A stretch of DNA of 64,000 bases from Elusimicrobiota bacterium (GTDB taxonomy: Bacteria; Elusimicrobiota; Elusimicrobia; UBA1565; UBA9628), in assembly GCA_016209035.1 (NCBI GenBank), contig JACQWX010000126.1:16288-80287 (forward strand), given 5' to 3'. This document shows positions 576 through 63,373 of the stretch, piece after piece. Under the pieces are notes generated by a model. It had not been told where the DNA came from, ran no database searches, and saw nothing but the letters and a program-made list of their open reading frames with translations. How positions within the stretch are numbered: the first letter of the stretch is position 1; each line of letters begins with the position of its first letter. Both the position numbers and the translations under genes were made by a program.

Positions 576-3500
576 GTGTGGACATCTGTTTCACCCGCGA
601 CCATGCTGACCGGCTTCTTGAAGTGGCCCCCTGCCGCCCACGTCTTTCCTGATGGCGCAGGGGACGCTCGGCCTCCGGCCTGGACCGCGCCCCTGCTCGC
701 CTGCCTACTGGCTGCCGCCATGCCCGCCTTCGCTGCCGGCCCCGGCATCTCCGAGCCGCAGGTCCAGCAGTGCAACGACACCTTCGTCTCCGGGTCGTCC
801 ACGCGCAAGGCCTCGCCCCAGATCAAGGTCCCCATCCAGGACCCCACGGGCTTGAGGGTCGGCATCACCAGCACCCCCTACCGGTCGGCCGCCGGCTTTG
901 GGATGTGGCGTTTCAACACATCCTATACCAAGGCCCTCGAGAACAATTGTCTCGAGCAGGGTAACAAGAGAATCCGTTCGTGGGTCTATCGCTACGACGA
1001 TCCCGAGACGGCGGAACCCGTGATCGTGGGCCGGTGCGCCTACAGCGCGAGCACCCCCACAGCCGGATGCGCAGCCGACCTCAACACCATGGTTCTCGAC
1101 GCGACCGTCACCCAGTTCCCAATCAGAACCCCCTATCCATGGGTTTCCTGTCCGAGCAGCACCCAGACCATCGCCAATCATCCCGCCACCTATTCCTTCA
1201 ACCCCACTACCAGGACCGTGGACTCGGGGTGCTTGCCCGAGGCGACTTGCGGCTCGGCCAAGAATTGCCGATACTGGACCTGGACCTACGAGGATGCTTT
1301 CTCGAACATCACGGCCGGCCGCTGCACCTACAGCGCCAGCTCTACGACTCCCGAATGCGGGGCAGGCATCGGCAGCATGAGCCTCAGCGCGACGCTGCCT
1401 TGGCCCATCATCCAGCCCGAGTTGTTCTCCATCGGAGCATGTCCGGCGAGCACGGCCACGCTGCCCAGCGGGAATCAGCCCACCACCATCCCCCTGGGCC
1501 GATTCGACACGGGCCTGTTCAGAGACAGCGTGCACGCCCCCGTCGTGGAGAGCACCCAGGCCCTCACGATCGGCATCTACTACACCATGAGCGCCTGGGT
1601 CAGGACCTCGGCCGGGGGCTTGCAGAGGATATTCTCCCACCAGGATGGCACCAAGTACTGGGGATTCGGCCTCAACGGCGGAGCCCTTCGGCGTTTCGAC
1701 TCGCGCGAGGACGCCGGGAACCAGGACAACTCGCTGGGCTCGGGCTTGAACGACAATCAGTGGCACCATGTGGCCGTCGTGCGCAGGGACGGGGTGGAAT
1801 GGGAATTCTACAAGGACGGGCAGTCTCTAGGCACAACACCGGCCAGGACCGCTGCCGCCTTCTCGACAGGCTTCTCCAACCCCGCCTACGTCGGGAGCTA
1901 CCTCGGCTCATCGGAGTTCTTCAACGGCATGATCGACGACGTGCGCCTCTGGAGATACTCCATGACCGACGATGAGATGGCTCTCGACTACAACGCGACC
2001 GTCCACCGCTTCTCGATCAACGGGGGGAGCTCCTTCTCCTACGTCTTCCGCGATCCGCCCTCCAACGCCTACAATCCCCCGGCTTCCAACGGCACCACGG
2101 TCACCGTCTACTACCAGCCCGCGGTCCAGTCCGACATCACGACCGACCACAAGTACGTCTTCATGGCCCAGGACCGAACAGGAGAGTACACCGTCCAGGC
2201 CCCGTACACCGTGTACGTGGACAAGACCCCTCCGTCGAAGCCCGTGCTCTCCGGCGCCCCGCAATCCACGAACGAGATTCTCTGGACCTGGCCGACCCCC
2301 GCTTCGTTCTGCGGCCCTCCGGAGTACGCGGCCTTCTACACCCTGATCAACCCCGGCAGCGGCGCCACCATCATGAGCGTCCTGGACCCGACCCTGCAAA
2401 TCCTTGAGAACTTCGGAGGCGAGCCCCCCAACCAGCTCCACGGCCGGGTCATCTCGGCCACGGACATCTACGGCACCAGTCCTCTCTCCGACTGCACGAC
2501 CGCCTACACCAAGGCCGCCCAGCCCACGGCCTTGGCCGCGACCTCCATCTCGACCGGGTCGTTCGTCCTGCAGTGGAACAACCAGAACAACCCGAACTAC
2601 ACCCGCTACGAGCTCCAGTACAGCACGGTGGACGGGTTCGCCAGCGGCGCCGTGACGCTGGCCGCCATCAGCGACGACTTCAACGGCAGCCAGAAGGGGG
2701 TCTCCGGACTCCAGAACGGCACGACTTATTACGCCCGCGTCCGAGCCAAGAACGGCAGGCAAACCGACTCCTACGGCACCGACCTGACCGCCTACGCCAC
2801 CGCCGATTTCACCACCCTGCCCGCGGCCCCGGTCCTGACCGGCGCCGCTCTGTCCACCGGGTCCGTCCGCTGGGATTGGACCTCCGTGACGGGCGCCTTC
2901 GGCTACAAGCTCTACAGCTCGACGAACGGCCTGATGGTCGACACGCCCGCGCTCTCCTACTCCTCTTCGACGCTCAGCACCAACACGGCCTACGGCGCCT
3001 CGGTGGAGGCCTACGACCGTTACGGCACGGCCGGGCCGCGCTCGCCCACAGTCTACATCTTCACCCTGGCCACCAGCCCGGTCAACGCCTCCATCACCGC
3101 GGTCAGCACCAACGAGATCACCGTGTCCTGGGACGCCAACGGAAACGGCCCGCAGACCTACTACGAGGTCGTCATCGCGACGAACTCCGCCTTCGCCGCC
3201 GCGCTGAGCACCCAAGGCGTCACTGGCACCAGCGCGACCATCAAGGACCTTTTCCCGAAGACGACCTACTACTTTCGGGTCAGGGCCGTCAGCGGGGGGG
3301 GGGTCGCGACCCCCTTCATCCCGGAGACGCCGCTCAAGGCCGTGACCTACCCGAACCCCTACGTGAGCGTCTCGGACCCCCTGACCTCGCCCTACGTGCT
3401 CAAGGACGGCCTGGTGGGGTTGTGGCACATGGACGAGAGCTCGAACACTTCGGCCGCGGATTCCTCGTACACGAACAACGTCGGGACGCTCACCTGCATG

Positions 3501-4927: not shown

Positions 4928-5923
4928 ATGGGACGTGTCTGCGTTCCCGTTTTCTTAGGTCTCCTTCTTGCCGTTTCGCTGTGGGCTCCGCCCACAGCGA
5001 GGGCATCTTTCAAGCGCCGGGACACCGGCTCCAACGCCGCTCAGTTCCTCAAGCTCGGGGCGGACGCCCGCGCGGCTGGCATGGGCCAGGCCGTCCGGTC
5101 CCTGGCCGAGGACGCGACCTCCGTCTACTGGAACCCGGCGGGACTCTCGGGCTTGAGGCTGCGGCACGCGACCTTCTCCCACGGAGCCCTCTACCAGGGC
5201 ATCTTCTACGATTTCCTCGCCTATGCCCAGCCCATCGAGTCGATCCTCGGGCGCAAGGAGCCGCGGCAGATCCGCGAGAGCCAGCTCGGAAGCCTGGGCG
5301 TCGCCTTGTTCTACATGAACGCGGGCTCCCTGCAGGAGACCGACAACACCGGGACCGCGACCGGCGGCAGCTTCATGCCCCAGGAGTTCGCCGGCGCGGT
5401 GGCCTGGGGCGGACGGCTCTCCTCGAACCTGGACGCCGGCATCGGCGTCAAGTTCATCCACTCGAAGCTCTACGAAAGCGCCCAGACCGCGGCGGGCGAC
5501 GTCGGAGCCAGGCTGCGCTTGAGGATCGCGCGCATGCCTCTGACCCTGTCGGTCGGGGCACACAACTTCGGGGGCAGCCTGAGGTACGGGCGGCAAAGCC
5601 AGGACCTCCCCTTCTTCGTGAGCGCCGGGGCCGGCCTGCGCGTAACCAAGGGCCTCATCCTGACCGGCGACCTCGTCGCGCCGCGGGACAACCGGCTCTA
5701 CGCCGCGGCGGGACTCGAGTTCCGGCAGGCCCTCACCTCCAAGGCGGGCTTCTCCCTGCGGGCCGGCTACAACGGGATGAACTACGACAGCGACCTCATG
5801 GGCCTCTCCGCGCTGGGGCTGGGAGCCGGGGTGCGCTTCCATCGGGTGGACGTGGACTACGCCTGGACGCCGTTCGGCATACTCACCACCGGCCACCGTT
5901 TCTCCCTCGCCTACCGATTCTGA
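4928..5923 (+). CDS. PorV/PorQ-family (FadL-like) outer-membrane beta-barrel protein (331 aa)
   Basis: signal peptide MGRVCVPVFLGLLLAVSLWAPPTARA; N-terminal family motif NAAQFLKLGADARAAGMGQAVRSLAEDATSVYWNPAGLSG (G.ARa.gMGgA..a.adDasA.ywNPAGL shared by PorV/PorQ/UPF0164/FadL-like barrels); C-terminal aromatic residue (..SLAYRF); immediately downstream of a CTD-bearing cargo. Confidence 0.75.
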   Translation: MGRVCVPVFLGLLLAVSLWAPPTARASFKRRDTGSNAAQFLKLGADARAAGMGQAVRSLAEDATSVYWNPAGLSGLRLRHATFSHGALYQGIFYDFLAYAQPIESILGRKEPRQIRESQLGSLGVALFYMNAGSLQETDNTGTATGGSFMPQEFAGAVAWGGRLSSNLDAGIGVKFIHSKLYESAQTAAGDVGARLRLRIARMPLTLSVGAHNFGGSLRYGRQSQDLPFFVSAGAGLRVTKGLILTGDLVAPRDNRLYAAAGLEFRQALTSKAGFSLRAGYNGMNYDSDLMGLSALGLGAGVRFHRVDVDYAWTPFGILTTGHRFSLAYRF

Positions 5924-5950: not shown

Positions 5951-6958
5951 ATGGCCAAGAAGGTCCTCGTCACCGGATGCTCCGGCTACCTGGGAGAGCT
6001 CCTGGTCAGGAACCTCCTCGCCCACCCCCTCGTCCAGAAGGTGGTGGCCGTGGACCTCAAGCCTCCCAAGGTCCCGGCGCGGCACAAGTTCAAGCATTGC
6101 GCCGCCGACATCCGCGACGAGTTCCTCCTGCGCAGCATCATCGAGGAGGAATCCGTCGACACCATCTTCCACCTCGCGTTCATGGAAGCCGACCCCAGCC
6201 GGGCCGTGCTGTCCCACGCGATGAACGTCGGCGGGACGCTGACCGTGTTCGACGCCGCCAACCGGAGCGCGGCGGTCAACAAGCTCGTGATCACGAGCTC
6301 GACCTGGGCCTATGGCGCCCGCCGCGGGAACCCCGTGCCCCTGCGGGAGAGCGACCGCTTGAGGGCCACGGACTGGCCTTACGGGCTGCACAAGAGGCTC
6401 GTGGAGGAGGAGCTCGCCAAATCCCTTGCCCATTGCCGCAAGGGACTCAACGTGGCGGTCCTGCGGCTGGCCACGGTCGTCGGCGGGTCGGAGAGGCCCA
6501 AGGGGCCCGTGCGGCTCTTCTGCGAGGCGCCGTTCGGCGTGTCCGTCATGCTGCGCGGCGGCGAGATGCAGTTCCTCAGCGAGGCGGACTTCTGTAGAAC
6601 GATGAACCGCGCGATGGAGGAGCCCTCCTTCAGCGGGACCTACAACGTCGCCCCCGACGGCTGGACGACGGTCGCCGCTTTGTGCAGGAGGCTGGGCAAG
6701 ACGCGCATCCCCCTGCCCTATTCGTTCCTTTGGCTCTACTTCTTCCTCTCCAACACCCCGCGCCGGAAGGACTCCGTTTCCGAGGAACTGGCGGACATCC
6801 TGGCGTTCCCCGTGGTGGTCTCCAACGAGAAGATCAAGAAAGCCTTGGGCCTCGTCTTCGAGAAGGACTCCGAGGCCGCGTTCCTGGAGTGCGCCGCCGC
6901 CTGCGGCTGGAAGCCCCCGGCCCCTGCGCCTCTGGCGCAGGGGCCGCATGGGAAGTGA
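5951..6958 (+). CDS. NAD-dependent epimerase/dehydratase (SDR family)
   Basis: N-terminal Rossmann motif VLVTGCSGYLGELLV; length 335 aa. Confidence 0.8.
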   Translation: MAKKVLVTGCSGYLGELLVRNLLAHPLVQKVVAVDLKPPKVPARHKFKHCAADIRDEFLLRSIIEEESVDTIFHLAFMEADPSRAVLSHAMNVGGTLTVFDAANRSAAVNKLVITSSTWAYGARRGNPVPLRESDRLRATDWPYGLHKRLVEEELAKSLAHCRKGLNVAVLRLATVVGGSERPKGPVRLFCEAPFGVSVMLRGGEMQFLSEADFCRTMNRAMEEPSFSGTYNVAPDGWTTVAALCRRLGKTRIPLPYSFLWLYFFLSNTPRRKDSVSEELADILAFPVVVSNEKIKKALGLVFEKDSEAAFLECAAACGWKPPAPAPLAQGPHGK

Positions 6959-7708: not shown

Positions 7709-10009
7709 ATGCTCAGGCCGCTCTCGCTCGCCGTCCTTGTCGGCTGGCTGGTCCATGCTGGGCCTGCGCCCAGGGCGCAGGCCCAGGGGCCTCAGACCCA
7801 GAGGACGCTCGCGGAGGCCTCGCAGGGCTCGCGGACCCGAGCAGGGAAGGAGAGCGCCCGCGCCCTGCTGAGGCAGGGACACCGGCTCTACTTCCGCGGA
7901 GACCATGAGAGGGCGCTCAAGAGCTACGAGGCGGCCGTCCGCCTCTCTCAGGACCCCATCGAGCCCCTGCTCAACGGCGCCGTCGTGCTCGCAGAGCTCG
8001 GACGGCCGCGCGAGGCGGTCCGGTGGCACCGCCGGGCCGCGGCCCTGCCACGCGCCGACGCCGACGCGCTCGACGCCCTGGCATGGGCGGAGTTCAACAT
8101 CGAAGACCTTGCCGATGCCCGCCGGCACTTCGAGGATGCTCTCGCCAGGTCGCCGGAGCATCCGCAGGCCCTCCTAGGCCTGGCCCGCGTGGAGCTCGAG
8201 GCCTCCAAACCCGTCGAGGCGCTCAAGCTCCTCGACCGGGCCGGCGCTTGCGCTCCCCTCGACACCCTCATCCCATTCTTCAAGGGCAAGGCCTACGCCC
8301 TCATGCGGGATCCGGCGCAGGAAGCGGCTGCCTGGCGTCAATGCGTCTCTGCCGACTCGTTCTTCATCGAGGCGCGCGAGGCCTTGGGGCTGGTCCACTC
8401 AAGGCTCCGGAACTTCGCGGAAGCCTGGAAGCAGTTCTCGAAGGCCGCGGATGCCGATCCCAAGAACAAGCGCTTCCAAACGCGCCTCGACGAGATGAGG
8501 TTCGCGGCGCCGGCCACTCCGAGCGCCCTCGGCGATGGCCGGATGCCCGTCCTGCGCGTGGGCATCGGCGCCAACATGGCGGGCAAGCCCGCTGCCTGCG
8601 CCCAGGGCGCAGGGGCCGCCGTCTCATGGTCGGTCAACCAGCCGTTCTGGGTCGTGGACGCCTCCACGCAGAAGAAGCTCGCCCGCGGGCAGCCGGGGCA
8701 GACCTGGCAGGCTCGCCGGGTCGCGCAGAAGAAGCGCTCGATCGTCGAACTGCGGGGCCCTGGCCGGGACCAGAGGCTCAAGGCCGCTCGCCCGGTCGTC
8801 ATCCGTCCCGACTCCGCCTCCGAAGGGCTCATCTCCGTCAACTTCGCGCCTTGCTCCGAGGGCTCCGGCGCCGAGGACCTGAGCGACGGCGTCCCGCGGT
8901 GCAGCCTCAGGGCCGACCGCCGCCTGCGCGGAGATCTCGAGATCGCATCCTACCCAGAGAAGCGCTCTCTCAAGCTCATCAACCGCATCAACCTGGAGGA
9001 CTACACCCACGGCGTGCTCTCCATGGAGATGCCCATCGGCTCGCCGCTGGAGGCGCTCAAAGCCCAAGCCGCCTTGGCCCGCGCCCACGCGCTCTACATC
9101 AAGACGGTGGCCAGACGCCACCGCCGCGAGGGCTACGACCTCTGCGACAGCCAGCACTGCCAGGTCTACGGTGGGTTCGGGGCGGAGACGGCGCGCTCCC
9201 GGGAGATCGTCAAGGCCACCCGGGGCATGGTCGTGACCTACCAGGGCAAGCCCGCGCACGTCATCTACTCTTCGAACTGCGGCGGGCACACCCAGAGCGG
9301 CTCGGACCTCACCGGCTGGGGGAGCCTCCCGTATTGGCTGGGCATCCTGGACGCGGTCCAGCCCGGAGGGCGAGCGTCCCCTGCGCCATCAGGAAAGGTG
9401 TGGGCGCAGGCGGACGCGGCAGGCGGCGGTCGAGGCGCCGCCGGGGAAGACGGCTCCGGTTTCCCGGACTCGCCGTGGAGCCTCCGGCTCTGGTTGAGGT
9501 CGGCCCCGCAGGCTTTCTGCAAGCCCTCGACCCATGTCGGCGCCTCGCATTCCCGCTGGGCCAGGGTCTTCTCTTACCGCGAGCTCGACGAGAAGGTCAA
9601 CCGGCGGCGCCGCATCGGCAGGCTCATGGCCCTGCGCCCGGGGCATCGGTCCCCCGGCGGGCATCTCAACTCGTTTCGGGTCGTGGGGACGCGCGGGAGC
9701 TTCACCATCACCGACGAGATGAGCATCCGCAGCCTCCTGGGGATCGGCTCCTTGCGCAGCACCCTCTTCGTCCTGGACACGCAGTACAAGGCGAAGCCCG
9801 CGGGTCTGCCCCCAGGACGCGGGGGCCGCAGGCCCAAGGGCCCGCCCGCCCTGGTGCCTGTCTCCGTAGTCCTGCATGGGGGGGGGTGGGGGCACGGGGT
9901 CGGCATGTGCCAATCCGGGGCCATGGGCCGGGCCGAGGCGGGCCAGACCTTCGACGAGATCATCAAGGCCTATTTCAAGGGCGTCGAGATCTCTCGACTG
10001 TCCTACTGA
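7709..10009 (+). CDS. TPR-repeat plus SpoIID/LytB-domain protein (about 766 aa), secreted
   Basis: signal peptide MLRPLSLAVLVGWLVHAGPAP; TPR-like helical repeats; SpoIID/LytB motifs CDSQHCQVYGG, VVTYQGKPAHVIYSSNCGGHTQSG, VVLHGGGWGHGVGMCQSGA. Confidence 0.8.
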   Translation: MLRPLSLAVLVGWLVHAGPAPRAQAQGPQTQRTLAEASQGSRTRAGKESARALLRQGHRLYFRGDHERALKSYEAAVRLSQDPIEPLLNGAVVLAELGRPREAVRWHRRAAALPRADADALDALAWAEFNIEDLADARRHFEDALARSPEHPQALLGLARVELEASKPVEALKLLDRAGACAPLDTLIPFFKGKAYALMRDPAQEAAAWRQCVSADSFFIEAREALGLVHSRLRNFAEAWKQFSKAADADPKNKRFQTRLDEMRFAAPATPSALGDGRMPVLRVGIGANMAGKPAACAQGAGAAVSWSVNQPFWVVDASTQKKLARGQPGQTWQARRVAQKKRSIVELRGPGRDQRLKAARPVVIRPDSASEGLISVNFAPCSEGSGAEDLSDGVPRCSLRADRRLRGDLEIASYPEKRSLKLINRINLEDYTHGVLSMEMPIGSPLEALKAQAALARAHALYIKTVARRHRREGYDLCDSQHCQVYGGFGAETARSREIVKATRGMVVTYQGKPAHVIYSSNCGGHTQSGSDLTGWGSLPYWLGILDAVQPGGRASPAPSGKVWAQADAAGGGRGAAGEDGSGFPDSPWSLRLWLRSAPQAFCKPSTHVGASHSRWARVFSYRELDEKVNRRRRIGRLMALRPGHRSPGGHLNSFRVVGTRGSFTITDEMSIRSLLGIGSLRSTLFVLDTQYKAKPAGLPPGRGGRRPKGPPALVPVSVVLHGGGWGHGVGMCQSGAMGRAEAGQTFDEIIKAYFKGVEISRLSY
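7760..7791 (+). repeat. short palindromic element family B copy 1 (core CCTGCGCCCAGGGCGCAGG) in-frame in the signal-peptide region
   Basis: gggcctgcgcccagggcgcaggcccaggggcc; the same 19-bp palindrome recurs at 8595-8613 and 10154-10172. Confidence 0.75.
8591..8620 (+). repeat. palindromic element family B copy 2, in-frame (encodes PAACAQGAGAAV)
   Basis: gctgcctgcgcccagggcgcaggggccgcc. Confidence 0.75.
9362..9410 (+). repeat. palindromic element family A copy 2, in-frame inside the SpoIID domain (encodes GGRASPAPSGKVWAQADAAGG)
   Basis: cccggagggcgagcgtcccctgcgccatcaggaaaggtgtgggcgcagg; reverse complement of the 631-682 copy; stem CCTGCGCC/GGCGCAGG. Confidence 0.75.
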
Positions 10010-15642: not shown

Positions 15643-15643
15643 T

Positions 15644-15682
15644 GGCGTCAGGCATTGCGCAACTTGCGCAATGCCTGACGCC
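15644..15682 (+). terminator. 39-bp perfect palindrome (19-bp arms GGCGTCAGGCATTGCGCAA c TTGCGCAATGCCTGACGCC) immediately after the kdsC-like stop; terminator or protein-binding site
   Basis: seen directly; no U-tract. Confidence 0.5.
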
Positions 15683-15727
15683 ACGCTATTGCGGATTCCT
15701 TGCCATGTGTACTAGAATGCCCCTGCC

Positions 15728-25718: not shown

Positions 25719-26458
25719 ATGATATCAGCCAAGACATTGGCGGCAATAAGTTCCAAAACGATCGCCTACTGGAAGGCCGAAGTAAAAAAGCCCGAGATAG
25801 TCGGAATCGCCAAGGGCAAAGAAATCGGCCACAAACTCGCAGCAAGGGCAAAGAAATCGGCCACAAACTCGCAGACCTCGTCGATGAGAAAACGACGGCA
25901 CTGCTCACGGTGGAATTCCTCACGAAACACCAACGGGACTCGCAGGGCCAAAAGCGGTCACGCAGCATGGGCGATTTGTGGTTGCAGGACAGTGGTATTT
26001 ATCATCCGGTCAACGTCAAGACGGGCATCGTTGGCGCAGAAGGCCAGCCAAATCTGGTCTCGTTGAAAAAGGTTTTCAGCGCCATTATGGCGAGGCAGAT
26101 TGACTCCTACTATCTCTTGATTGTCAAAATGGACATTAGCGCCAAAGGAATTGCGCCATCCGTGTGCCTCATTGACATGCTTGACTGGCTAGACTACGTC
26201 ACTTTTGATTCTGGCCCCGGCCAGATGATGCTGAGAGCTGTCAAGTTCTTCGCCGAATTCGATCCGACGAAAGTCAAGACCCTCGACATCAAGAGCAAAG
26301 CGCAGAGACTCATGGAGTTGTACGAGGATGGCGAACGGAGACTCAAGGAGAACCGCGAGAGAGACCTTCAGCACTACCGACATGAGTTTCGTGATTTCCT
26401 CGCGGGCAAGAATTTCCGCGTCACGCCCGAAACTCAAAGGAGCCTCATCCTGCAATGA
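25719..26458 (+). pseudogene. type II restriction endonuclease candidate inactivated by a frameshifting 32-bp tandem duplication (intact length would be 235 aa)
   Basis: the N-terminal reading frame (MISAKTLAAISSKTIAYWKAEVKKPEIVGIAKGKEIGHKLA) continues seamlessly into ORF 25910-26458 (..DLVDEKTTALLTVEFLTKHQRDSQ...) once one 32-bp copy is removed; stop overlaps the start of the adjacent DNA methyltransferase (ATGA); low-G+C island. Confidence 0.55.
25811..25874 (+). repeat. perfect 32-bp tandem duplication (caagggcaaagaaatcggccacaaactcgcag x2)
   Basis: read directly; unit length not divisible by 3, so it frameshifts the restriction endonuclease (REase) gene. Confidence 0.95.
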
Positions 26459-28164
26459 GTGTTGCGAGACTTTCACGAGATCGAAAACGCCAGCTTGGCC
26501 AGTTCCTGACCCCCGATTCCACTGCGGCGGCCATCGCTAGAGACTTGCGAATATTGCCAAGTCACCGGATATTGGAGCCATCATTCGGTGAGGGCTCTTT
26601 TATCTTTCAAGTGATCGATTCCCTCAAAGCCGACATCCCCCGCAATGACATCCATGCATGGTGCAACGCGCATCTTTTCGGCTGCGAAATCGATGCCGAC
26701 GCACATGGGACCTTCAAGGAAACCTGGCAGTCCAGGGGTTTAGGTGGGGTTCCCAACAACTTGGAACACTGCGACTTTTTTGAGTGGCTACCTCCCGGTT
26801 GTGACCGAACAGCCGCCACCAATCGCCAACGATACTTCGCATCTCCCCTGGAGTATTTCGATCTCGTGATAGGCAATCCGCCCTTTGGCGGAAGCATCAA
26901 CCCGGACATCCAAGATGAACTAGATAGCATCTTCGGCTTCCGTGACGGCCGGAAGATCAAGAAGGAAACCTATGCGTTCTTCATTGTTAAGTGCGTCGAC
27001 CTATTGAAGTCGGGCGGGAGACTTGTATTCATTTGCAGCGATACGATTCTTACTATTGCAACCATGACGGGGCTCCGCGCATGGCTTCAGAGCAACTGTA
27101 GCATTCAGATATCAGAGGTTCCGGGGTCCTTCTCAGACACCAATCAAGATATGCTGCTTGTTACGCTTACCAAGCACCCAATCGAACCTCGACAGATCAC
27201 AGTATTTGGAACATGCCTTCCCCTTTCTGAGATTGAAGCGACGCCAAACATGAGTTGGCGTGTCAGCGGCGATTTGGCCAAGTACTTCACCGGGGCAACG
27301 GTCGGGGAGAAGATGGTCGCGACATCCGGCATGACCATCGGCAACAACGAGCTCTTTCTTCGCCCGATCATACAAGGCGAGATTCATGAGCCCTATGCTT
27401 TCTCGTTCACCGCTCGCCCCATTACTGTCCAAAGAGAGATTACCCGCGCACGACTAGGCAAGGTGCCCCCGCGTCGCCTAATAGCTGTCCGAGAACAGGA
27501 GGCGCGTTGTGCCACCGAAAGGGTTGTCGTCTGGGACCGATTGAAAAACCCGCGCCCAGTGAAACTCCCACACGCTGACTACTGCTACTACAACAAGGCC
27601 ACCTCACGGATCATCTACTCAGAACCTGAATGGGTGATCTTCTGGCGCGGCGATGGGGAGTATGTCTACACCTTTAAGAAGACCGGCAATTGGTACCTCC
27701 ATGGCGTTGGTGGCATGAAGTACTTCGGGCGCGAGGGACTCTCATGGTCACTCATCGCGCCTAGGCTCTACGCACGATACCTGCCTCCCGGGTATATCCT
27801 AGACAGTGGAGCGCCATGCGCTTTCTTGCGACAAGGAGTCCCGCAGGATGAGTTATTTTTCATTCTTGGCTGGGCACTTACCGACTTGTGCAACCGCATC
27901 CTTAAAGAAGTGCTGAATCACACACGAAATATCCAGAGCAAGGACTTCGAACGCCTCCCGTATCCCGTCTGGGTTGATGCAGAATCTAAACAGCAAGCCG
28001 TTCTTGCGGTCAGAAGCCTGGTATCGAAAGCAAGGGCAGGACACTCGTTCTCGATGAAGAGCTCGGAGGTTCACGCCCTGAACCTGTTTTATGCATGGCG
28101 GGATTGTCGGGTGGCGGTTGTTGCCAAGAAGAAGAACGCCCCCATTCAAATTCCACTCTTCTGA
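26455..28164 (+). CDS. N6-adenine-specific DNA methyltransferase, gamma-class (motif order X, I, IV), 569 aa
   Basis: LGQFLTPDSTAAAIA (motif X), ILEPSFGEGSFIFQ (motif I, FxGxG), DLVIGNPPFGGSI (motif IV, NPPF); large C-terminal target-recognition region. Confidence 0.85.
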   Translation: MSVARLSRDRKRQLGQFLTPDSTAAAIARDLRILPSHRILEPSFGEGSFIFQVIDSLKADIPRNDIHAWCNAHLFGCEIDADAHGTFKETWQSRGLGGVPNNLEHCDFFEWLPPGCDRTAATNRQRYFASPLEYFDLVIGNPPFGGSINPDIQDELDSIFGFRDGRKIKKETYAFFIVKCVDLLKSGGRLVFICSDTILTIATMTGLRAWLQSNCSIQISEVPGSFSDTNQDMLLVTLTKHPIEPRQITVFGTCLPLSEIEATPNMSWRVSGDLAKYFTGATVGEKMVATSGMTIGNNELFLRPIIQGEIHEPYAFSFTARPITVQREITRARLGKVPPRRLIAVREQEARCATERVVVWDRLKNPRPVKLPHADYCYYNKATSRIIYSEPEWVIFWRGDGEYVYTFKKTGNWYLHGVGGMKYFGREGLSWSLIAPRLYARYLPPGYILDSGAPCAFLRQGVPQDELFFILGWALTDLCNRILKEVLNHTRNIQSKDFERLPYPVWVDAESKQQAVLAVRSLVSKARAGHSFSMKSSEVHALNLFYAWRDCRVAVVAKKKNAPIQIPLF

Positions 28165-28367
28165 TGCGCAGTAAAAGAGTTGAGGCACTTCTCGAAGCAG
28201 CGGCCAGGATCAGGGAATTCTGTAACGCGCGTGGCTACGATTTCCAGGGGCGTCTACTCGTAAGGCGACAGAATCGCAGTCTAAAAGTCATCGCGCCTGA
28301 ACTTATTGACCTTTGCATAACTAATGGAAGGATGGCTCATCGTTTCCATGGGAGATCGGAAGCATAG
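28164..28367 (+). CDS. small hypothetical protein (67 aa) translationally coupled to the MTase (TGATG overlap)
   Basis: MRSKRVEALLEAAARIREFCNARGYDFQGRLLVRRQNRSLKVIAPELIDLCITNGRMAHRFHGRSEA; no recognisable domain. Confidence 0.35.
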   Translation: MRSKRVEALLEAAARIREFCNARGYDFQGRLLVRRQNRSLKVIAPELIDLCITNGRMAHRFHGRSEA

Positions 28368-28580
28368 ATGCAGGACCATAGCAGCTTCTGGGATTGTCGG
28401 ATTCGCTGGAGCGGGCGATGAATGCGGCTCTTGAGGTCGCAGAGGTCCTTGGGCGAGCTGTTGGCCAGCGGCCCTTTGACCAGCTTCCAGACCCACTTTC
28501 AAAACGGCTTCCATAAATACTACATTAGCCCCCTCAATGCTCGCCTCCCCGCGGGGGAGGCTCGCGACAAGGCTTGCGAC

Positions 28581-47468: not shown

Positions 47469-48767
47469 ATGGTAGGGATGGAGACCTGCGAATCGCAGGC
47501 CCGGCCGAGACTCTACACGCGCGCCTTCGGCTGCCAGATGTCCGCGGCCGACGTCGCGGAGATGTCCGGCGCGCTCGTGGAGCGAGGCTACACGCTCACT
47601 TCGGACCTCTCCGAGGCCGACGCCGTCCTGGTAGGGACCTGCACCGTGCGGGAGCACGCCGAGCACCGGGCGCTCTCCTACATCGGGAGGCTCCGGCGCT
47701 GGAAGCGCGAGCGCCCCTCCGGCGCCCTGATCGTGGCCGGCTGCGCGGCCGAACGCCTCGGCCCGGACATCAAGCGGCGGTTCCCCCATGTGGACCTCGT
47801 GACGGGCTCCAAGTCCGTGGGGGAGTTCCCTTCCTTGATCGACAAGGTCATGCCCGACCATCGCCTCCCCCGGGGGGGGCAGGTCCCCGAAGGACGGCGG
47901 AGTATCTGCGCGTCCGTGACCGTCATGCGGGGTTGCGACCGCTCGTGCAGCTACTGCATCGTCCCGTCCGTGCGCGGCCGGGAGGTCTACCGCCCGGCGG
48001 ACGAGATCCTCGCGGAGGTCAGGCGCAAGGCCGAAGCCGGGGCGAAGGAGGTGACCCTGCTGGGCCAGACCGTCAACAGCTACCGGTCTTCGGTTTCCTT
48101 CGCCGACCTTCTGGCGCTGGTCGACTCGGTGGCCGGCATCGAACGCATCCGCTTCATGAGCCCGCATCCCCTCCATCTCGACGGACCCATGGCACACGCC
48201 ATGGCGGAGTGCCGCAAGGTGGCGCCCGCGCTCCATCTGCCCGCGCAGTCCGGCTCGGACCGCATCCTCGGGCTCATGCGGCGCGGCTACGACCGGGCCG
48301 CCTTCCTCGAGAAGGTGTCCATGGTCCGGCGCGCGGTGCCGGGCCTCACGGTCACGACGGACTTTCTCGTCGGTTTCCCCTCGGAAACCGACGAAGATTT
48401 CCAATCCACTCTTTCACTCTTCGAAGATATGGGCGCCGTTTCAGCGTATTGTTTCAAGTACTCCCCCAGGGCCTCGACGCCGTCAGCCTTCCTGCCGGAC
48501 GACGTCCCTAGGCGAGTCAAGGAAGACCGGCTCGCCCGGCTCAACGCCTTCGTCGCAGGCAGGACGGCCGCCTATCTCGATTCCCTCGCGGGCCGCGAGG
48601 TCCAGGTGCTCACCGAGGAGCCCGGAGTCGGCCGGGCCGCGGACGGATTCAAGGTGAGGCTCGTCCCGCCGGTCCCGCCGGTCCCGCCGGGCCGGCTGGT
48701 CCAGGCTCAAGTCGTCGGCCGGACCCGCAACATGCTTTTTGGGAACCTTCTGCGGAGGAACGCATGA
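47469..48767 (+). CDS. miaB: MiaB-family radical-SAM methylthiotransferase (MTTase N-domain, radical SAM, TRAM); alternative start at 47478
   Basis: Cys triad of the MTTase domain (FGCQMSAAD); radical-SAM CxxxCxxC (RGCDRSCSYC); adjacent to miaA. Confidence 0.75.
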   Translation: MVGMETCESQARPRLYTRAFGCQMSAADVAEMSGALVERGYTLTSDLSEADAVLVGTCTVREHAEHRALSYIGRLRRWKRERPSGALIVAGCAAERLGPDIKRRFPHVDLVTGSKSVGEFPSLIDKVMPDHRLPRGGQVPEGRRSICASVTVMRGCDRSCSYCIVPSVRGREVYRPADEILAEVRRKAEAGAKEVTLLGQTVNSYRSSVSFADLLALVDSVAGIERIRFMSPHPLHLDGPMAHAMAECRKVAPALHLPAQSGSDRILGLMRRGYDRAAFLEKVSMVRRAVPGLTVTTDFLVGFPSETDEDFQSTLSLFEDMGAVSAYCFKYSPRASTPSAFLPDDVPRRVKEDRLARLNAFVAGRTAAYLDSLAGREVQVLTEEPGVGRAADGFKVRLVPPVPPVPPGRLVQAQVVGRTRNMLFGNLLRRNA

Positions 48768-50196: not shown

Positions 50197-51880
50197 AGGC
50201 TCCGTGAAGCGGCCTCCAGGCCCAGAGCCGTTCCCGGCCGCCCTGCGCCTCTATCTCCTCTCGGGCGTCTTCGTGACCGGGGCCGCGGTGCTCGCCCTCG
50301 AGCTGGTGGGGTCCCGCGTCATCAGCCCGTTCTACGGCTCGTCGTTGTACTGCTGGGCGGCCATCATCACGGTCACCATGGTCGCGCTCGCGGCGGGCTA
50401 CGGCCTCGGCGGCCGCGCCGCCGACCGCGACCCCACGCCGGACCTGTTCCCGAGACTGGTCGCGGCCGCGGCCGTGGCGGTCGCTCTCATCCCGCTCCTG
50501 AGGATCCCGGTCCTGCGGCACACCGCCTGGATGGGGGTGCGGCTGGGCGCGCTGGCGAGCTCGGCCGTCCTCTTGGGTCCCGCGCTCGCGTGCCTGGGGG
50601 CCGTGGTCCCCGTCGTAGTGCGGCTCCTGACCCGGGAGGTCTCTTCCGTGGGCAGCCGGGCCGGCGAGGTCATGGCCGTCTCCACTTTAGGAAGCGTCCT
50701 GGGCGCCGTGGCGTCCGGGTTCTTCCTCATCCCCAACCTCCCGGTCCCACGCATCCTCTTCGGGCTCGCCGCGCTCCTCTTCCTGCTCTGCGGCGTGGGG
50801 CTCATCATCGGCCGCCGGCGGTTCCCGGTGAAGACGGCGGTGGCCGCCGTCTCGGCCGCGGTCCTCGGCTGGTGGCCCGGGAGCCACGGGATGCTGTTCG
50901 CGAGGCAGTCGCTCTACGGCGAAGTCAAGGTCTTGGACTCGAACGGGCGGCTCTACCTCCTTGTCGACGGGGTGACGCAATCCGTCGCGCGCAGGCTTGG
51001 GGAGGGGTTTGAAGCCGACTCCCCGTACGTGCACACGCTCGAACTCGCGGCGCTCCTGCCCCATGGGGGGCAGGTCCCCGGAGGCGCAGGCAGTTCTCCG
51101 CTCGCCGGAGGGAGCCTGGCGCGGGGCAGGCCGCGTCCCAGGGCTCTGTTCATCGGCTCCGGGGCAGGGCAGCTCCCGGACTCCTTCGAGATCCGCTACG
51201 GCATCGACTCGGACGTCGTCGAGATCGACCCGGTCATGCTGGAGGCGGCGCGGCTCTTCGGCTTCCCGAGACGCCGTCAGGGCAGCCCGGACCCCGGCCG
51301 CGTCTTCGTGGAGGATGGCCGCACCTTCATGGAGAGAATCGGCAGGGACGCGAGGGACGCCATAGGGGAAGGCGGGCGCGTCCGGCGCTACGACATCATC
51401 GTGCTCGACGCCTTCGTCGGGGAAAACCCGCCCTACCATCTCTTCACCGCGGAATCCTTCCAGGCCGCCCGCCGCCTACTCGAGCCCGACGGCGTCCTGG
51501 CCGCCAACCTCGTGAGCCTCGTGGGCGCGGGCCAAGACGACGCCTGGGTCACCGCCTACAAGACCATGCGGTCGGTCTTCAAGGAGGTGCGCGTCCACCT
51601 CGCATCTCCGCCCCACGAAGGGCTGGCCAACGTCGTGTTCTTCTGCTCCGACGGACCTCTCGACGGGGCGCTGGCTCGGGCCCGGGCTCGGGCCCGGGCC
51701 GAGGTCCGGCGGGGCAGCGAGTACGCTCTCAGCCACGAGTTGACCCCTCCGCCCGAGGCGCTGCGGGCCGCGGTCGCGCTGAACGACGACTACGCCCCTG
51801 TCGAATCCCTGCTGGCCAAGACCGCGCTCGCATGGCGCAAGGTCGTGCAGGACACGGCCGGCGAGGCGGCCCTGCGCTAA
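50186..51880 (+). CDS. fused multi-TM / spermidine-synthase-family protein (polyamine aminopropyltransferase-like), 564 aa
   Basis: 7-8 N-terminal TM helices; C-terminal YDIIVLDAFVGENPPYHLFTAESFQAARRLLEPDGVLAANLVS spermidine-synthase core; ARARARARA run. Confidence 0.7.
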   Translation: MAREGSVKRPPGPEPFPAALRLYLLSGVFVTGAAVLALELVGSRVISPFYGSSLYCWAAIITVTMVALAAGYGLGGRAADRDPTPDLFPRLVAAAAVAVALIPLLRIPVLRHTAWMGVRLGALASSAVLLGPALACLGAVVPVVVRLLTREVSSVGSRAGEVMAVSTLGSVLGAVASGFFLIPNLPVPRILFGLAALLFLLCGVGLIIGRRRFPVKTAVAAVSAAVLGWWPGSHGMLFARQSLYGEVKVLDSNGRLYLLVDGVTQSVARRLGEGFEADSPYVHTLELAALLPHGGQVPGGAGSSPLAGGSLARGRPRPRALFIGSGAGQLPDSFEIRYGIDSDVVEIDPVMLEAARLFGFPRRRQGSPDPGRVFVEDGRTFMERIGRDARDAIGEGGRVRRYDIIVLDAFVGENPPYHLFTAESFQAARRLLEPDGVLAANLVSLVGAGQDDAWVTAYKTMRSVFKEVRVHLASPPHEGLANVVFFCSDGPLDGALARARARARAEVRRGSEYALSHELTPPPEALRAAVALNDDYAPVESLLAKTALAWRKVVQDTAGEAALR

Positions 51881-53262
51881 TGCTCACCAAGATCGCGGAG
51901 AGGGTCCTGCTCGTCGGCGTGGGACTCAAGCCCCCGGGCCTGCGGCCCAGGGGCCTGGGGCCCGACGGCCCCATGGGGCCGTCGGGCCGCACGGTCGAAG
52001 ACAGCCTCTCCGAGCTGCGCGGCTTGGTCGAGACCGCGGGCGCCGTGGTCGCGGGGACCGTGAGCCAGTCGGTGACGCGCTACCATCCCGGGACCCTCAT
52101 CGGCAGCGGCAAGGTGCTGGAGGTCGCTCAGATGGCCCGAGAAGTCTCGGCCCGCACCGTCATCCTCGACGCGGACCTGTCCCCCGCCCAGCAGAAGACG
52201 CTGGAGAAGGCGACCGACTCCAAGGTCATCGACCGCACCAGGCTCATCCTCGACATCTTCGCGAAGCGCGCCAAGACCTCCGAGGGCCGGCTCCAGGTGG
52301 AGCTCGCCCAGCTCTCCTACCTCCTGCCGCGCTTGACCGGGGCCTGGCGCTCCTTCTCCCAGCAGGTCGGCGGCATCGGCACCCGCGGCCCCGGAGAGCG
52401 CAAGCTGGAATACGAACGGCGCCACATCCAGTCGCGCATCACGCGCTTGAAGAGCGAGATCGAGAAGGTCAAGGCGCGGCGTCAGGTGCAGCGCTCGAGG
52501 CGGCTCTCCATCCCCGTGCCCCTCGTCGCGATCATCGGCTACACCAACGTCGGGAAATCCACCCTGCTCAACGCCCTGCTGTCGCAAGCCTCCCGTGTCG
52601 CGAGCCCCCCCCGCGGGGGGGCGAGCATCGGGGGGGCAGATGAGGGGGCAAGAAGCCGTTTCGTCTACGCCGACGACAAGCTCTTCGCGACCCTCGACCC
52701 GACCACGCGGCGCGTGCGCCTGCCGGACGGGACCCATGTGGTGGCCACGGACACGGTTGGCTTCATCCGGCGCCTGCCTACGGCGCTGGTGGCGGCGTTC
52801 CGCTCCACGCTGGAGGAGGCGGGCCTCGCCGACTGCCTGCTCGTCGTGACGGACGCCACCGCCCCTGACTTTTCGGCGCAGGACAGCGCCGTCGACGCCG
52901 TCCTCGACGAGCTCGGCGCAGGCGCGGTGCCCAGGGTCGAGGTCTTCAACAAGACGGACCTCGTCAGCCCCGAGCGAAGACGGGAGCTCGCGCTCTCCCA
53001 TCCGGGCCGGACGCTCATCTCGGCCGTGACCGGGGAAGGCATCTCGGCCGCGCTCGACCGGGTCCAGGAGATACTCTCGCGCAGGTGGCTCCTGAGGGAG
53101 CTCGACCTCCCGCACGGCGCGGGTCGGTTCGCCTCCGTCATCTACGCCAGCAGCCAGGTCATCAAAGAGACGCATGACGGGACCATGGTCCGCTACCGGA
53201 TGAGGGTCACGGCCGAGAACTGGGAGCGACTGCGGGCATTGACGCGGCAGTATTTTTGCTAG
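51880..53262 (+). CDS. hflX: GTPase HflX (with two atypical in-frame GC-rich insertions)
   Basis: HflX N-domain ERVLLVGV...LVETAGAVV; G1 GYTNVGKSTLLNAL; G2 LFATLDPT; G3 DTVGFI; G4 NKTD. Confidence 0.85.
   Translation: MLTKIAERVLLVGVGLKPPGLRPRGLGPDGPMGPSGRTVEDSLSELRGLVETAGAVVAGTVSQSVTRYHPGTLIGSGKVLEVAQMAREVSARTVILDADLSPAQQKTLEKATDSKVIDRTRLILDIFAKRAKTSEGRLQVELAQLSYLLPRLTGAWRSFSQQVGGIGTRGPGERKLEYERRHIQSRITRLKSEIEKVKARRQVQRSRRLSIPVPLVAIIGYTNVGKSTLLNALLSQASRVASPPRGGASIGGADEGARSRFVYADDKLFATLDPTTRRVRLPDGTHVVATDTVGFIRRLPTALVAAFRSTLEEAGLADCLLVVTDATAPDFSAQDSAVDAVLDELGAGAVPRVEVFNKTDLVSPERRRELALSHPGRTLISAVTGEGISAALDRVQEILSRRWLLRELDLPHGAGRFASVIYASSQVIKETHDGTMVRYRMRVTAENWERLRALTRQYFC
51931..51990 (+). repeat. 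60-bp GC-rich palindromic in-frame insertion in hflX (encodes PPGLRPRGLGPDGPMGPSGR), related to family B
   Basis: cccccgggcctgcggcccaggggcctggggcccgacggccccatggggccgtcgggccgc; contains a perfect 13-bp stem GCCCGACGGCCCC atg GGGGCCGTCGGGC. Confidence 0.65.
52594..52656 (+). repeat. homopolymer-rich palindromic in-frame insertion in the hflX G-domain (C8-GC-G7, G7, G5)
   Basis: cgagccccccccgcgggggggcgagcatcgggggggcagatgagggggc encodes RVASPPRGGASIGGADEGARSR between the P-loop and switch I. Confidence 0.6.
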
Positions 53263-54892: not shown

Positions 54893-55497
54893 GCAAGGAC
54901 AAGAACCCCCCGGACAAGAACCCTCCGGACAAGACTCCGCCGGAAGAGGGCACCCCCGAGAAGGAGGTGCGGATCTATTCCTTGGCCACCACGGCCAACG
55001 AGTGCATCATCTTCCTTGAGGAGCTCGGCGGCAACCGCCTCCTGCCGATCTGGATCGGCATCGCAGAGGGACAGGCCATCGCCATCCGGTTCTCGGGCAT
55101 CGTCCTGCCCAGGCCGCTCACGCACGACCTTCTGCTGGCCACCGTCACCGCCGTGGGCTTCACGGTGCATAAAGTGGTGGTCCACGACATCCGGGAGAAC
55201 ACCTTCTACGCGAGGGTGCTCATCAAGAAGGGCGCCCAGTCGCTGGCCGTCGATTCCCGCCCGTCCGACGCCATCGCGGTGGCCGTGCGCGCCGGCTGTC
55301 CGATTTTCGTCGAGGAGAAGGTCTTCGACCGCTGCCAGACGCTCACCAAGCCGATCACCGAGGACGAGGTCAAGAGATTCAAGTCGGAACTGAAGACCTT
55401 GAAGCCCGAGGACATCTTCGGGGACCTCAAGAAGAAGAAAGAGGAAGGGCCCGAGAGCCGCAAAGAAGACGAGAAAGACGAGGAGGCCGACAGCTAG
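54889..55497 (+). CDS. bifunctional nuclease family protein (BFN/DUF151) with acidic/lysine-rich tails
   Basis: core ...IRFSGIVLPRPLTHDLL...LAVDSRPSDAIAVAVRAGCPIFVEEKVF. Confidence 0.65.
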   Translation: MSKDKNPPDKNPPDKTPPEEGTPEKEVRIYSLATTANECIIFLEELGGNRLLPIWIGIAEGQAIAIRFSGIVLPRPLTHDLLLATVTAVGFTVHKVVVHDIRENTFYARVLIKKGAQSLAVDSRPSDAIAVAVRAGCPIFVEEKVFDRCQTLTKPITEDEVKRFKSELKTLKPEDIFGDLKKKKEEGPESRKEDEKDEEADS

Positions 55498-55798: not shown

Positions 55799-56161
55799 GT
55801 GCTGTCTACCCTGCCGGACAAGGATTTCTTCTCCATGGGGGAGGCCTCGCGCTTCGCCCAGGTGTCCGCCCACACCCTCAGGTACTGGGAATCGCGAGTG
55901 ACTGCGCTGCGGCCCAGCCGCCTGCCCAGCGGCCACCGCCGCTACACGCGCTCCGACATCGAGACCATCCTGTCGATCAAGGACCTCCTAGAGCGCCGTG
56001 GGCTCACCCTCGACGGCGCCCGGCGCGCGCTGAGACGGGGGAGGCGTTTCTCCGCCCTCGCTCGCGAGGGCGGAAGTCCTGAGTTGTCGGGCAAGGCCAT
56101 GAATACCCTATCCGAGGTGAAGAGGGATCTGCGCAGCCTCATGGAGGAATTGTCCAGATGA
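55799..56161 (+). CDS. MerR-family transcriptional regulator (start possibly Met at 55835)
   Basis: HTH FSMGEASRFAQVSAHTLRYWESR...RLPSGHRRYTRSDIE. Confidence 0.7.
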   Translation: MLSTLPDKDFFSMGEASRFAQVSAHTLRYWESRVTALRPSRLPSGHRRYTRSDIETILSIKDLLERRGLTLDGARRALRRGRRFSALAREGGSPELSGKAMNTLSEVKRDLRSLMEELSR

Positions 56162-56282: not shown

Positions 56283-56346
56283 CGGATTTCGAGGGGAACG
56301 GCAACGGCCTAAGCCCCCTCGGCTACTCGCCTCCCCGTGGGGGAGG

Positions 56347-56419
56347 CGAGTGACACGGGGTATAGCTCAATTGGCAGAGCGCTTGGTTCGGGACCAAGAG
56401 GTTCTCAGTTCGACCCTGA
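56347..56419 (+). tRNA. tRNA-Pro (anticodon CGG), no encoded CCA
   Basis: acceptor CGGGGTA/TACCCCG, anticodon arm CTTGG-TTCGGGA-CCAAG, T-arm CTCAG-TTCGACC-CTGAG. Confidence 0.8.
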
Positions 56420-58328: not shown

Positions 58329-58500
58329 GGCCCAGGGCGCGGACAGGATCGCCAAAAGCGCCTCCCTGCGGAACATCCTGGTCCACGACTACAACGACGT
58401 GGACCGGAGAATTCTGCATTCCTCCATCAAGTCCTGCATCCGCGACTACAGGAGGTACTGCGAGTACCTCCTGGCCTTCCTAAGGTCACGCAATACGTAG
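58329..58500 (+). pseudogene. C-terminal fragment (about 56 aa) of a HepT/DUF86-family HEPN RNase toxin; N-terminal half missing
   Basis: ...DRIAKSASLRNILVHDYNDVDRRILHSSIKSCIRDYRRYCEYLLAFLR carries the R-x4-6-H HEPN motif (RNILVHDY); the upstream part of this frame only overlaps apt. Confidence 0.45.
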
Positions 58501-63308: not shown

Positions 63309-63340
63309 TATAGCTACAAGCTAGACTTAGAACGAAAGGA

Positions 63341-63373
63341 CCCCCCGGCGAAAGCCGGGGGGTTTCTTTTTCC
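63341..63373 (+). terminator. rho-independent terminator (CCCCCCGGC gaaa GCCGGGGGG plus TTTCTTTTT)
   Basis: seen directly, 33 nt after the porin stop. Confidence 0.9.

Follow-up and report, generated by a model that had tools for sequence, protein, structure and literature searches.

Palindromic repeats lying in frame within genes were reportedly described by Ogata et al. in 2000 as Rickettsia palindromic elements (RPEs). In-frame RPEs are summarized in PMC10969869, and repetitive extragenic palindromic elements (REPs) are likewise found inside genes, where they encode 20 to 30 residues, in several species (Di Nocera et al. 2013, PMC3733652), among them Opitutus terrae and Rickettsia conorii. 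The GTPase HflX can itself carry extra segments: in the mycobacterial protein an N-terminal extension and a 9-aa HD-loop insertion are conserved within the clade and matter for rRNA disordering (PMC12493154). Here we describe the hflX gene of an Elusimicrobiota bacterium, found in a 64-kb stretch of contig JACQWX010000126.1 (metagenome-assembled genome [MAG] GCA_016209035.1); this whole stretch is called the window below. The gene contains two real in-frame, GC-rich, palindromic insertions, one in the N-domain (insert 1) and one in the GTPase domain (insert 2), as a first-pass annotation of the DNA had proposed, and alignments with homologs and relatives confirmed that both are absent from canonical HflX. 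Insert 2 belongs to a dispersed family of hairpin repeats, and insert 1 stands alone, an orphan insertion seen only in this genome. We consider it likely that insert 2 is a REP-like repeat copy, that insert 1 is a palindrome of local origin, and that both are tolerated as loops. The inserts, striking as they look in a universally conserved GTPase, would then be by-products of genome-level repeat dynamics and not an HflX-specific adaptation.

The gene and its insertions are placed as follows, in window coordinates.

51880..53262, + strand: hflX coding sequence, 460 aa (open reading frame [ORF] list, Pfam, PDB match)
52581..52662, + strand: insert 2, a copy of the "C8-GC-G7" hairpin repeat (blastn-short, covariance model R1)
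51931..51978, + strand: insert 1, 48 nt or 16 aa, encoding PPGLRPRGLGPDGPMG (protein and DNA alignment)

The product has the domain layout of HflX, with GTP-bdg_N (PF13167, E = 8e-30) and GTP-bdg_M (PF16360, E = 3e-31) followed by a P-loop GTPase domain (MMR_HSR1, PF01926, E = 9e-16); the match to HflX_C was weak, at 22.7 bits and under the 26.4-bit cutoff. It is 100% identical to the NCBI entry "GTPase HflX [Elusimicrobiota bacterium]"; the species is represented in the databases by a single genome, and the nearest other HflX is 74% identical. The best PDB match is HflX from E. coli (5ADY, E = 2.6e-79). Each of the GTPase motifs falls in invariant columns of an 86-sequence alignment: G1 (GxxxxGKS; G225-K226-S227), G2 (T275), G3 (DTVG, 291 to 294), and G4 (NKxD; N357, K358, D360).

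An AlphaFold model, calculated with 86 sequences as input, had a mean predicted local distance difference test score (pLDDT) of 87.9 and a predicted template modeling score (pTM) of 0.84. The pLDDT drops to 54 to 62 over residues 21 to 40 (insert 1) and to 50 to 60 over residues 241 to 270 (insert 2). The model suggests that both inserts form flexible surface loops, rich in Gly, Pro, Ser, and Ala, with the GTPase motifs and the fold kept intact, and both are most likely near-neutral passengers for the HflX protein. Two positions in HflX, the β1-α1 loop of subdomain ND1 and the α1/switch I linker, accept 16 to 27 extra residues. Mycobacterial HflX is comparable in that HflX tolerates, and can exploit, clade-specific extra segments. 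The mycobacterial segments, however, lie at the N terminus and in a helical-domain loop reaching the peptidyl transferase center, whereas those in the window lie in the ND1 loop and the linker, are not sequence-conserved among relatives, and derive from a repeat and a palindrome.

Insert 2 and the C8-GC-G7 repeat family

Insert 2, which reads ...SQASRVASPPRGGASIGGADEGARSRF in frame, gives the G domain about 22 extra residues after helix α1 and before switch I; in E. coli HflX the corresponding point falls between residues 217 and 221. Protein alignments were made with 18 and then 119 homologs, and DNA alignments with the four nearest relatives (L001 to L004). The linker that separates GKSTLLN from YADDKLF has 31 aa in the window protein, 8 or 9 aa in 89 of 116 homologs, and 11 to 16 aa in a further 21. 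Linker inserts of at least 25 aa occur in seven proteins, the window HflX among them, and their sequences are mutually unrelated. Judged by these alignments the P-loop/switch I linker is a permissive site, which makes the tolerance of insert 2 less striking than had been supposed.

The homopolymer runs attributed earlier to insert 2, C8-GC-G7 plus two more G runs, were all found as described: C8 at 52605-52612, G7 at 52615-52621, a second G7 at 52630-52636, and G5 at 52644-52648. In the predicted RNA fold of the hflX repeat copy (-56.8 kcal/mol, z = -4.2), the second G7 pairs with an upstream CCUCCC. Runs of G or C of at least 7 nt number 10 in the window, against about 11 expected from a second-order Markov model, so a general homopolymer excess was rejected; the unusual part is the clustering of three such runs within 32 nt, inside insert 2. 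We also considered a canonical G-quadruplex in the repeat and dropped it, the G7-N8-G7 spacing exceeding the 7-nt loop rule. A motif scan for G-quadruplexes returned no window motif with two G runs of at least 6, such as the repeat has, and among the motifs listed none lay near the three repeat copies.

Searching with the DNA of insert 2 (blastn-short) identified significant matches at nonhomologous loci: one of 90% over 42 nt at 28528-28569 of the window (minus strand) and three in L004 (89 to 92%). When metagenomes were scanned for the right-arm pattern, copies came to light in four more contigs. A covariance model, R1, was then built from nine copies and used to search all sequence gathered, including L028, which is 21 kb of the L004 genome. 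In all, 14 copies were found and aligned, 3 of them in the window and 8 in L028. Five of the eight in L028 lie outside the training set, with E values from about 1e-10 to 2e-19; the hflX copy, itself part of the training, matched over 52589-52664 with 74.7 bits. At E ≤ 0.01 there was no R1 match in 74 kb from L001, L002, L003, L029, and L030. Long α1/switch I inserts as a class could not be traced to repeats, those of P0013 and P0072 being single within 21 kb of the respective contigs and unmatched by R1. The earlier idea of a mobile element is apt for insert 2, with its 13 other copies of a dispersed hairpin repeat, and unsupported for insert 1, which has no other copy in the sequence searched.

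The core hairpin of insert 2 and the two other window copies are the following.

52604..52622, no strand assigned: core hairpin of insert 2, its G-C8 and G7-C arms joined by a 3-nt loop (sequence and RNA fold)
28501..28576, - strand: repeat copy upstream of a zinc-ADH-like gene (R1, 73.6 bits)
56286..56362, - strand: repeat copy between tRNA-Pro(GGG) and tRNA-Pro(CGG) (R1, 60 bits)

The consensus is (A/G)TCACTCG - C7/8 - RC - G7 - CGAGTAGC - G7 - CCGATG..CCGTTTC, with a unit of about 76 to 82 nt. It contains a 12-bp stem, in which 96.4% of cells are paired across the 14 copies, with compensatory changes in 10 cells at 3 pairs (A-U to G-C, C-G to G-C or U-A, and C-G to U-A). None of 500 shuffles reached this level of pairing and covariation, and when the partner columns were slid only 52 to 61% were paired. 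In 11 of the 14 copies the stem is followed directly, on its 3' side, by GAGTAG; the hflX copy, the 28.5-kb copy, and L025 have GAGCAT instead.

Most copies occupy intergenic positions or the ends of genes, and some form tandem pairs; five of eight in L028 and two of three in the window lie between genes. The zinc-ADH-like gene (ADH_N and ADH_zinc_N domains) starts at 28581, just after the copy at 28501-28576. At the tRNA-Pro pair the repeat fills a 72-nt spacer in the window, and an orthologous copy lies at 14371-14446 of L028; in L001 and L002 the spacer is only 10 and 9 nt, a clean presence/absence difference. Hairpin 1 is 100% identical between the two orthologous spacer copies, and the rest of the element has diverged. 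In-frame copies occur in four genes: hflX, the SpeE-like gene of L004, the 3' end of miaA in L004, where two tandem copies make up the C-terminal tail of MiaA, and a DHO_dh-family (dihydroorotate-dehydrogenase-like) ORF in L017, where the repeat sits between two cluster motifs of a 4Fe-4S dicluster domain. Two forward frames are used. One reads SPPRGGAS or TRPPHGGAS (SPPRGGAS in hflX and the DHO_dh-family ORF) and the other LAPPAGG (the SpeE-like gene and miaA); the third is closed by TAG or TGA. Since two frames are in use, it is the DNA that is conserved and not a peptide.

The family behaves like REPs and in-frame RPEs, by analogy. It shares with REPs a short stem-loop, abundance in some genomes (8 copies within the 21 kb of L028), a patchy distribution across related genomes, and a mostly intergenic or gene-end and often paired placement with some copies inside ORFs. 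In most copies a GTAG stands next to the stem, which may be a further likeness. It differs in its 12-bp stem made largely of C7-8/G7 homopolymers, most REP stems being 6 to 9 bp, and in its longer unit (about 76 nt) with a second G run and a CCGTTTC tail. In E. coli REPs the GTAG precedes the hairpin; here, on the GTAG-reading strand, it is 3' of hairpin 1, so the side may differ. Elusimicrobiota are not among the phyla listed for GTAG or CGTC REPs (PMC3733652). The family cannot be filed as a GTAG-REP, the motif being not universal and absent from the hflX copy.

With RPEs the likeness is that of a palindromic repeat found in frame in unrelated housekeeping genes, whose proteins tolerate the added peptide segment. 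RPEs, however, are about 100 to 150 bp and AT-rich, with one conserved peptide per family in one frame, whereas the C8-GC-G7 repeat is about 76 to 82 nt, very GC-rich, read in two frames, and mostly intergenic; identity with RPEs was rejected on size, composition, and frame usage. A miniature inverted-repeat transposable element was rejected as well, the inverted repeat being internal (a hairpin near the 5' end) and not terminal, with no target-site duplication at the tRNA-Pro spacer beyond a possible GGGG. Nor did other classes fit. The repeat core had no match in viral contigs, on which ground a phage origin was set aside, and a search of Rfam for a known RNA family returned only four tRNAs at gathering thresholds and, for insert 2 and the copies in L004 with the cutoff relaxed to E = 10, nothing above noise. 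We know of no description of REP- or RPE-like in-frame colonization of housekeeping genes in this uncultured, GC-rich phylum, to which the present family would extend it; a literature search for such repeats in Elusimicrobia returned CRISPR-related and unrelated papers only.

The relatives suggest an age for the hflX insertion. By pairwise identity across three genes, the window is sister to L001-L003, and L004 falls outside this group. L002 and L004 lack the linker insert, L001 has one of identical length at the same site, and the L003 linker has five extra residues, encoded by CGCAATCCTCCCCCGCGGGAAGGAGGGC, with 23 of 28 positions identical to the hairpin of the 28.5-kb window copy (z = 5.3, 0 of 500 shuffles). 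A truncated remnant at the same site in L003 points to an old insertion. The notion of a recent hop is contradicted by this remnant and by the diverged insert of the same length in L001. The simplest reading of these sequences would be a single insertion of some age. The repeat would have reached the P-loop/switch I linker before this lineage and its nearest relatives separated, and the L001-L003 clade would then have let it decay, to a diverged form in L001, a remnant in L003, and nothing in L002, the window copy staying near consensus. No intact repeat copy was found in about 31 kb sampled from L001-L003. Intact copies in two genomes set against decayed ones in a sister clade form a natural comparison, which could help to find what maintains such repeats.

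Insert 1, an orphan palindrome in the N-domain

Insert 1 occupies the β1-α1 loop of ND1, the N-subdomain that contacts H69 (PMC12493154). The insertion itself was correctly recognized at first pass; its length, given then as 60 nt and 20 aa, is 48 nt and 16 aa by protein and DNA alignment. The β1-α1 loop is 8 or 9 aa in 102 of 103 Elusimicrobiota HflX proteins with an intact N terminus and 24 aa solely in the window protein. The insert is missing from the DNA of the four nearest relatives and sits cleanly between conserved codons. Its placement can be slid to 51941-51988 because of a flanking direct repeat, the right copy of which, at 51983-51988, is exactly 48 nt from the left.

51935..51940, + strand: CGGGCC, left copy of the 6-nt direct repeat bracketing insert 1 (sequence reading)
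51959..51988, no strand assigned: perfect 30-nt palindrome, GGCCCGACGGCCCCA followed directly by TGGGGCCGTCGGGCC, 15 + 15 nt (palindrome search)

A palindrome had been claimed here with 13-bp arms around a spacer. It is present, with longer arms and no spacer, and 51941-51955 holds a degenerate extra copy of its left arm. Folded as RNA, 51925-52000 has an energy of -57.6 kcal/mol (z = -4.0); each of the two inserts would give the hflX mRNA one very stable hairpin, of about -57 kcal/mol. The arms are inverted copies of a neighboring GGGCCGCA/CCGTCGGGCC segment, and the right arm overlaps a stretch with a GGGCCGC core common to relatives (CCG TCG GGC CGC in the window, TCC GAG GGC CGC in the relatives). 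Given this overlap, insert 1 looks as though neighboring sequence had been copied twice, inverted and in tandem.

No second match to a 28-mer of insert 1 was found in the window at up to 3 mismatches, and none in window shuffles. There was no other copy of the insert in the window or in about 200 kb of fetched loci (about 95 kb of distinct sequence from six related genomes). A 20-nt core searched against 185,579 genomes (one per species), a collection that did not include the source genome, gave 10 single matches in unrelated bacteria and none in Elusimicrobiota. The 13-nt arm occurs in the window at chance frequency (16 observed, 15.7 expected). With the 28-mer unique in the window, the arm at chance, and the genome matches single and in unrelated taxa, insert 1 is not supported as a dispersed element.

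A local origin is most likely. Insert 1 would have arisen by hairpin (snap-back) or template-switch synthesis plus slippage, and not by transposition. Quasipalindrome or template-switch mutagenesis has reportedly been described by Ripley and by Lovett and coworkers, and insert 1 resembles its products in consisting of inverted copies of adjacent sequence, in its perfect palindrome, and in the short direct repeat at its borders. Classical events, however, fix imperfect palindromes over a few bases, whereas 48 nt would have been added here by a mechanism that we infer from the product; with two tandem left-arm copies, a template-switch origin needs more than one step.

Alternative explanations for the two inserts

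The C8, G7, and G7 tracts could make hflX phase variable, since slippage by one base takes the GTPase domain out of frame, and the first-pass annotation had raised this possibility. Three G/C runs of at least 7 nt within 32 nt of coding sequence are of a length that can slip, and 7- to 8-nt G/C runs within a coding region recall homopolymer contingency loci. The C8-GC-G7...G7 arrangement, however, is the consensus of the repeat, and copies elsewhere, also in separately assembled genomes, have tracts of the same lengths, even between genes, where no reading frame is at stake. The window total of long G/C runs matches the Markov expectation, and no tract-length variants were seen among the available sequences (one genome of the species). 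Unlike contingency loci, moreover, the hflX tracts belong to a multicopy repeat with conserved lengths, and the product is a conserved GTPase associated with the ribosome and has neither a surface nor a restriction-modification role. Phase variation is thus unsupported, and we regard it as very improbable. Another possibility is that one or both inserts are assembly or sequencing artifacts, the source being a MAG and palindromes and homopolymers being error prone. This is scarcely credible, because both inserts are exact multiples of three, the 460-aa ORF stays open, and two separate assemblies carry inserts homologous to insert 2 at its site, while its sequence recurs in others; insert 1, for its part, is cleanly bounded by conserved codons. 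The tract lengths, which equal those of the family consensus and do not change from one assembly to another, are neither random sequencing errors nor a device specific to hflX.

The repeat might instead be a functional cis element, a hairpin for RNA processing, stability, or translational pausing that regulates hflX through its mRNA. The stem is conserved with compensatory changes, copies lie at gene ends and between tRNA genes, hairpin 1 of the tRNA spacer is unchanged between genomes whose proteins are 66% identical, and REPs are thought to act as RNA elements (PMC3733652). Both orientations relative to transcription occur, however, L001 and L002 have lost the element without replacement, no Rfam family matches, and palindrome conservation is equally explicable by recognition by a cognate transposase or by hairpin-driven gene conversion; we think this explanation unlikely. 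A trans-acting factor is suggested by the identity of the hairpin at orthologous sites in hosts whose proteins are a third diverged, by colonization of conserved genes in two frames, and by decay in the sister clade, which would have lost whatever keeps the repeat. It is improbable, in our view, that the repeat is an undescribed family, specific to certain Elusimicrobiota lineages and kept by such a factor, and that in hflX its stable hairpin and homopolymer tracts within the G-domain coding region are a real regulatory or slippage-prone switch on a stress-response factor that splits ribosomes. For insert 1 the alternative is a copy of another dispersed palindromic family whose other members lie beyond the searchable DNA. 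The genome hosts small hairpin repeats that enter ORFs in frame; a second repeat occupies different positions in the SpeE-like gene of the window and of L001, 91% identical over 44 nt; insert 1 shares the architecture of the hflX copy of the C8-GC-G7 repeat (partial left arm, left arm, right arm); and the 6-nt direct repeat could be a target duplication. Against this stand the failure of the window, locus, and genome searches to return a related copy and the complementarity of both left-arm copies to adjacent sequence with the relatives' GGGCCGC core, which a local origin explains directly. We treat a dispersed family for insert 1 as a minority possibility of some substance.

Several observations weigh against a REP-like insert 2 and a locally made insert 1 that are both neutral. 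Mobility of the repeat is deduced from its distribution only: comparison of filled and empty tRNA-Pro spacers gave no target-site duplication beyond a possible GGGG, and no transposase, of the RAYT type (IS200/IS605-like Y1) or another, was identified, Y1_Tnp being absent from the precomputed Pfam annotations of the fetched loci and no genome-wide transposase search having been made. The similarity of the L001 insert to that of the window is weakly above chance (z = 2.2, 7 of 500 shuffles). If the insertion is old, the near-consensus state of the hflX copy needs selection on the hairpin, gene conversion, or reinsertion at the same site, and the identical hairpin in the orthologous tRNA-spacer copies requires one of the same three. 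Further copies of insert 1 may lie elsewhere in the same genome. Finally, lineage-specific insertions in mycobacterial HflX are functional (PMC12493154), in contrast to neutral loops.

Neighboring genes and other repeats

Relatives share the gene order of the hflX neighborhood, which runs miaB-like, PilZ, miaA, SpeE-like, hflX, plsY, gpsA, BFN, HU, MerR, two tRNA-Pro, AcyP, and sigma-70. The start codon of hflX overlaps the stop codon of the SpeE-like gene (TAATG), which has insertions of its own. At 51074-51139 the window gene has a 22-aa in-frame insert just before its ALFIGSGAG motif, flanked by GGGGCAGG; the L001 ortholog carries the related 22-aa insert about 67 codons further on, at 5363-5440, flanked by a 15-nt direct repeat, CCGCCAGGGCGGCAG. 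The hflX insert of L001 and this SpeE repeat have an 11-nt exact core in common and flanks that are similar by eye, with no significant BLAST match. In the linker of the miaB-like gene, CCCCCGGGGGGGGCAGGTCCCCGAAGG (47867-47889) has a 16-nt exact match to the 5' end of the SpeE insert; this linker is of constant length and unrelated sequence among the window, L001, and L002. The SpeE-like gene also has a 13-aa insertion, RIGRDARDAIGEG, at 51335-51373, found in the window and in none of L001-L004, and near its C terminus a tandem 12-nt repeat, GCTCGGGCCCGG, of about 2.5 copies, at 51674-51703, encoding ARARARARA. A tandem DKNPP DKNPP DKTPP lies at the N terminus of the BFN-domain protein (54898-54942); one unit is missing in L001 and L002.

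Upstream of the repeat copy at 28501-28576, the region 26455-28500 holds an ORF for an Eco57I-like N6 DNA methylase (PF07669, PF02384), followed by a markedly AT-rich stretch in a window of 67% GC; this possible acquired island extends as far as the repeat copy. The longest palindrome in the window is a perfect one of 41 nt at 15643-15683, TGGCGTCAGGCATTGCGCAA c TTGCGCAATGCCTGACGCCA, with 20-nt arms and a 1-nt center. A 20-nt palindrome, GACGGCCCCATGGGGCCGTC, occurs in L006 (2362), L011 (6746), and L012 (3812), MAGs of different phyla, and all three have it within a common context (...RATGMTBCTBWVCAAGCCGGTSATYGS...), whose translation would be DGPMGPSRM(I/L)L(N/S)KPVI(A/G)A; L007, L009, and L014 seem to carry this context on the opposite strand. 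The longest homopolymers in the window are G10 (3294-3303) and G9 (9878-9886). Perfect GC-rich hairpins, with arms of 10 to 13 nt and loops of 2 to 4 nt, lie at or just after ORF ends at 6918-6946, 56051-56074, 58449-58473, and 63340-63363; they may be terminator-like and are unrelated in sequence to the C8-GC-G7 family.

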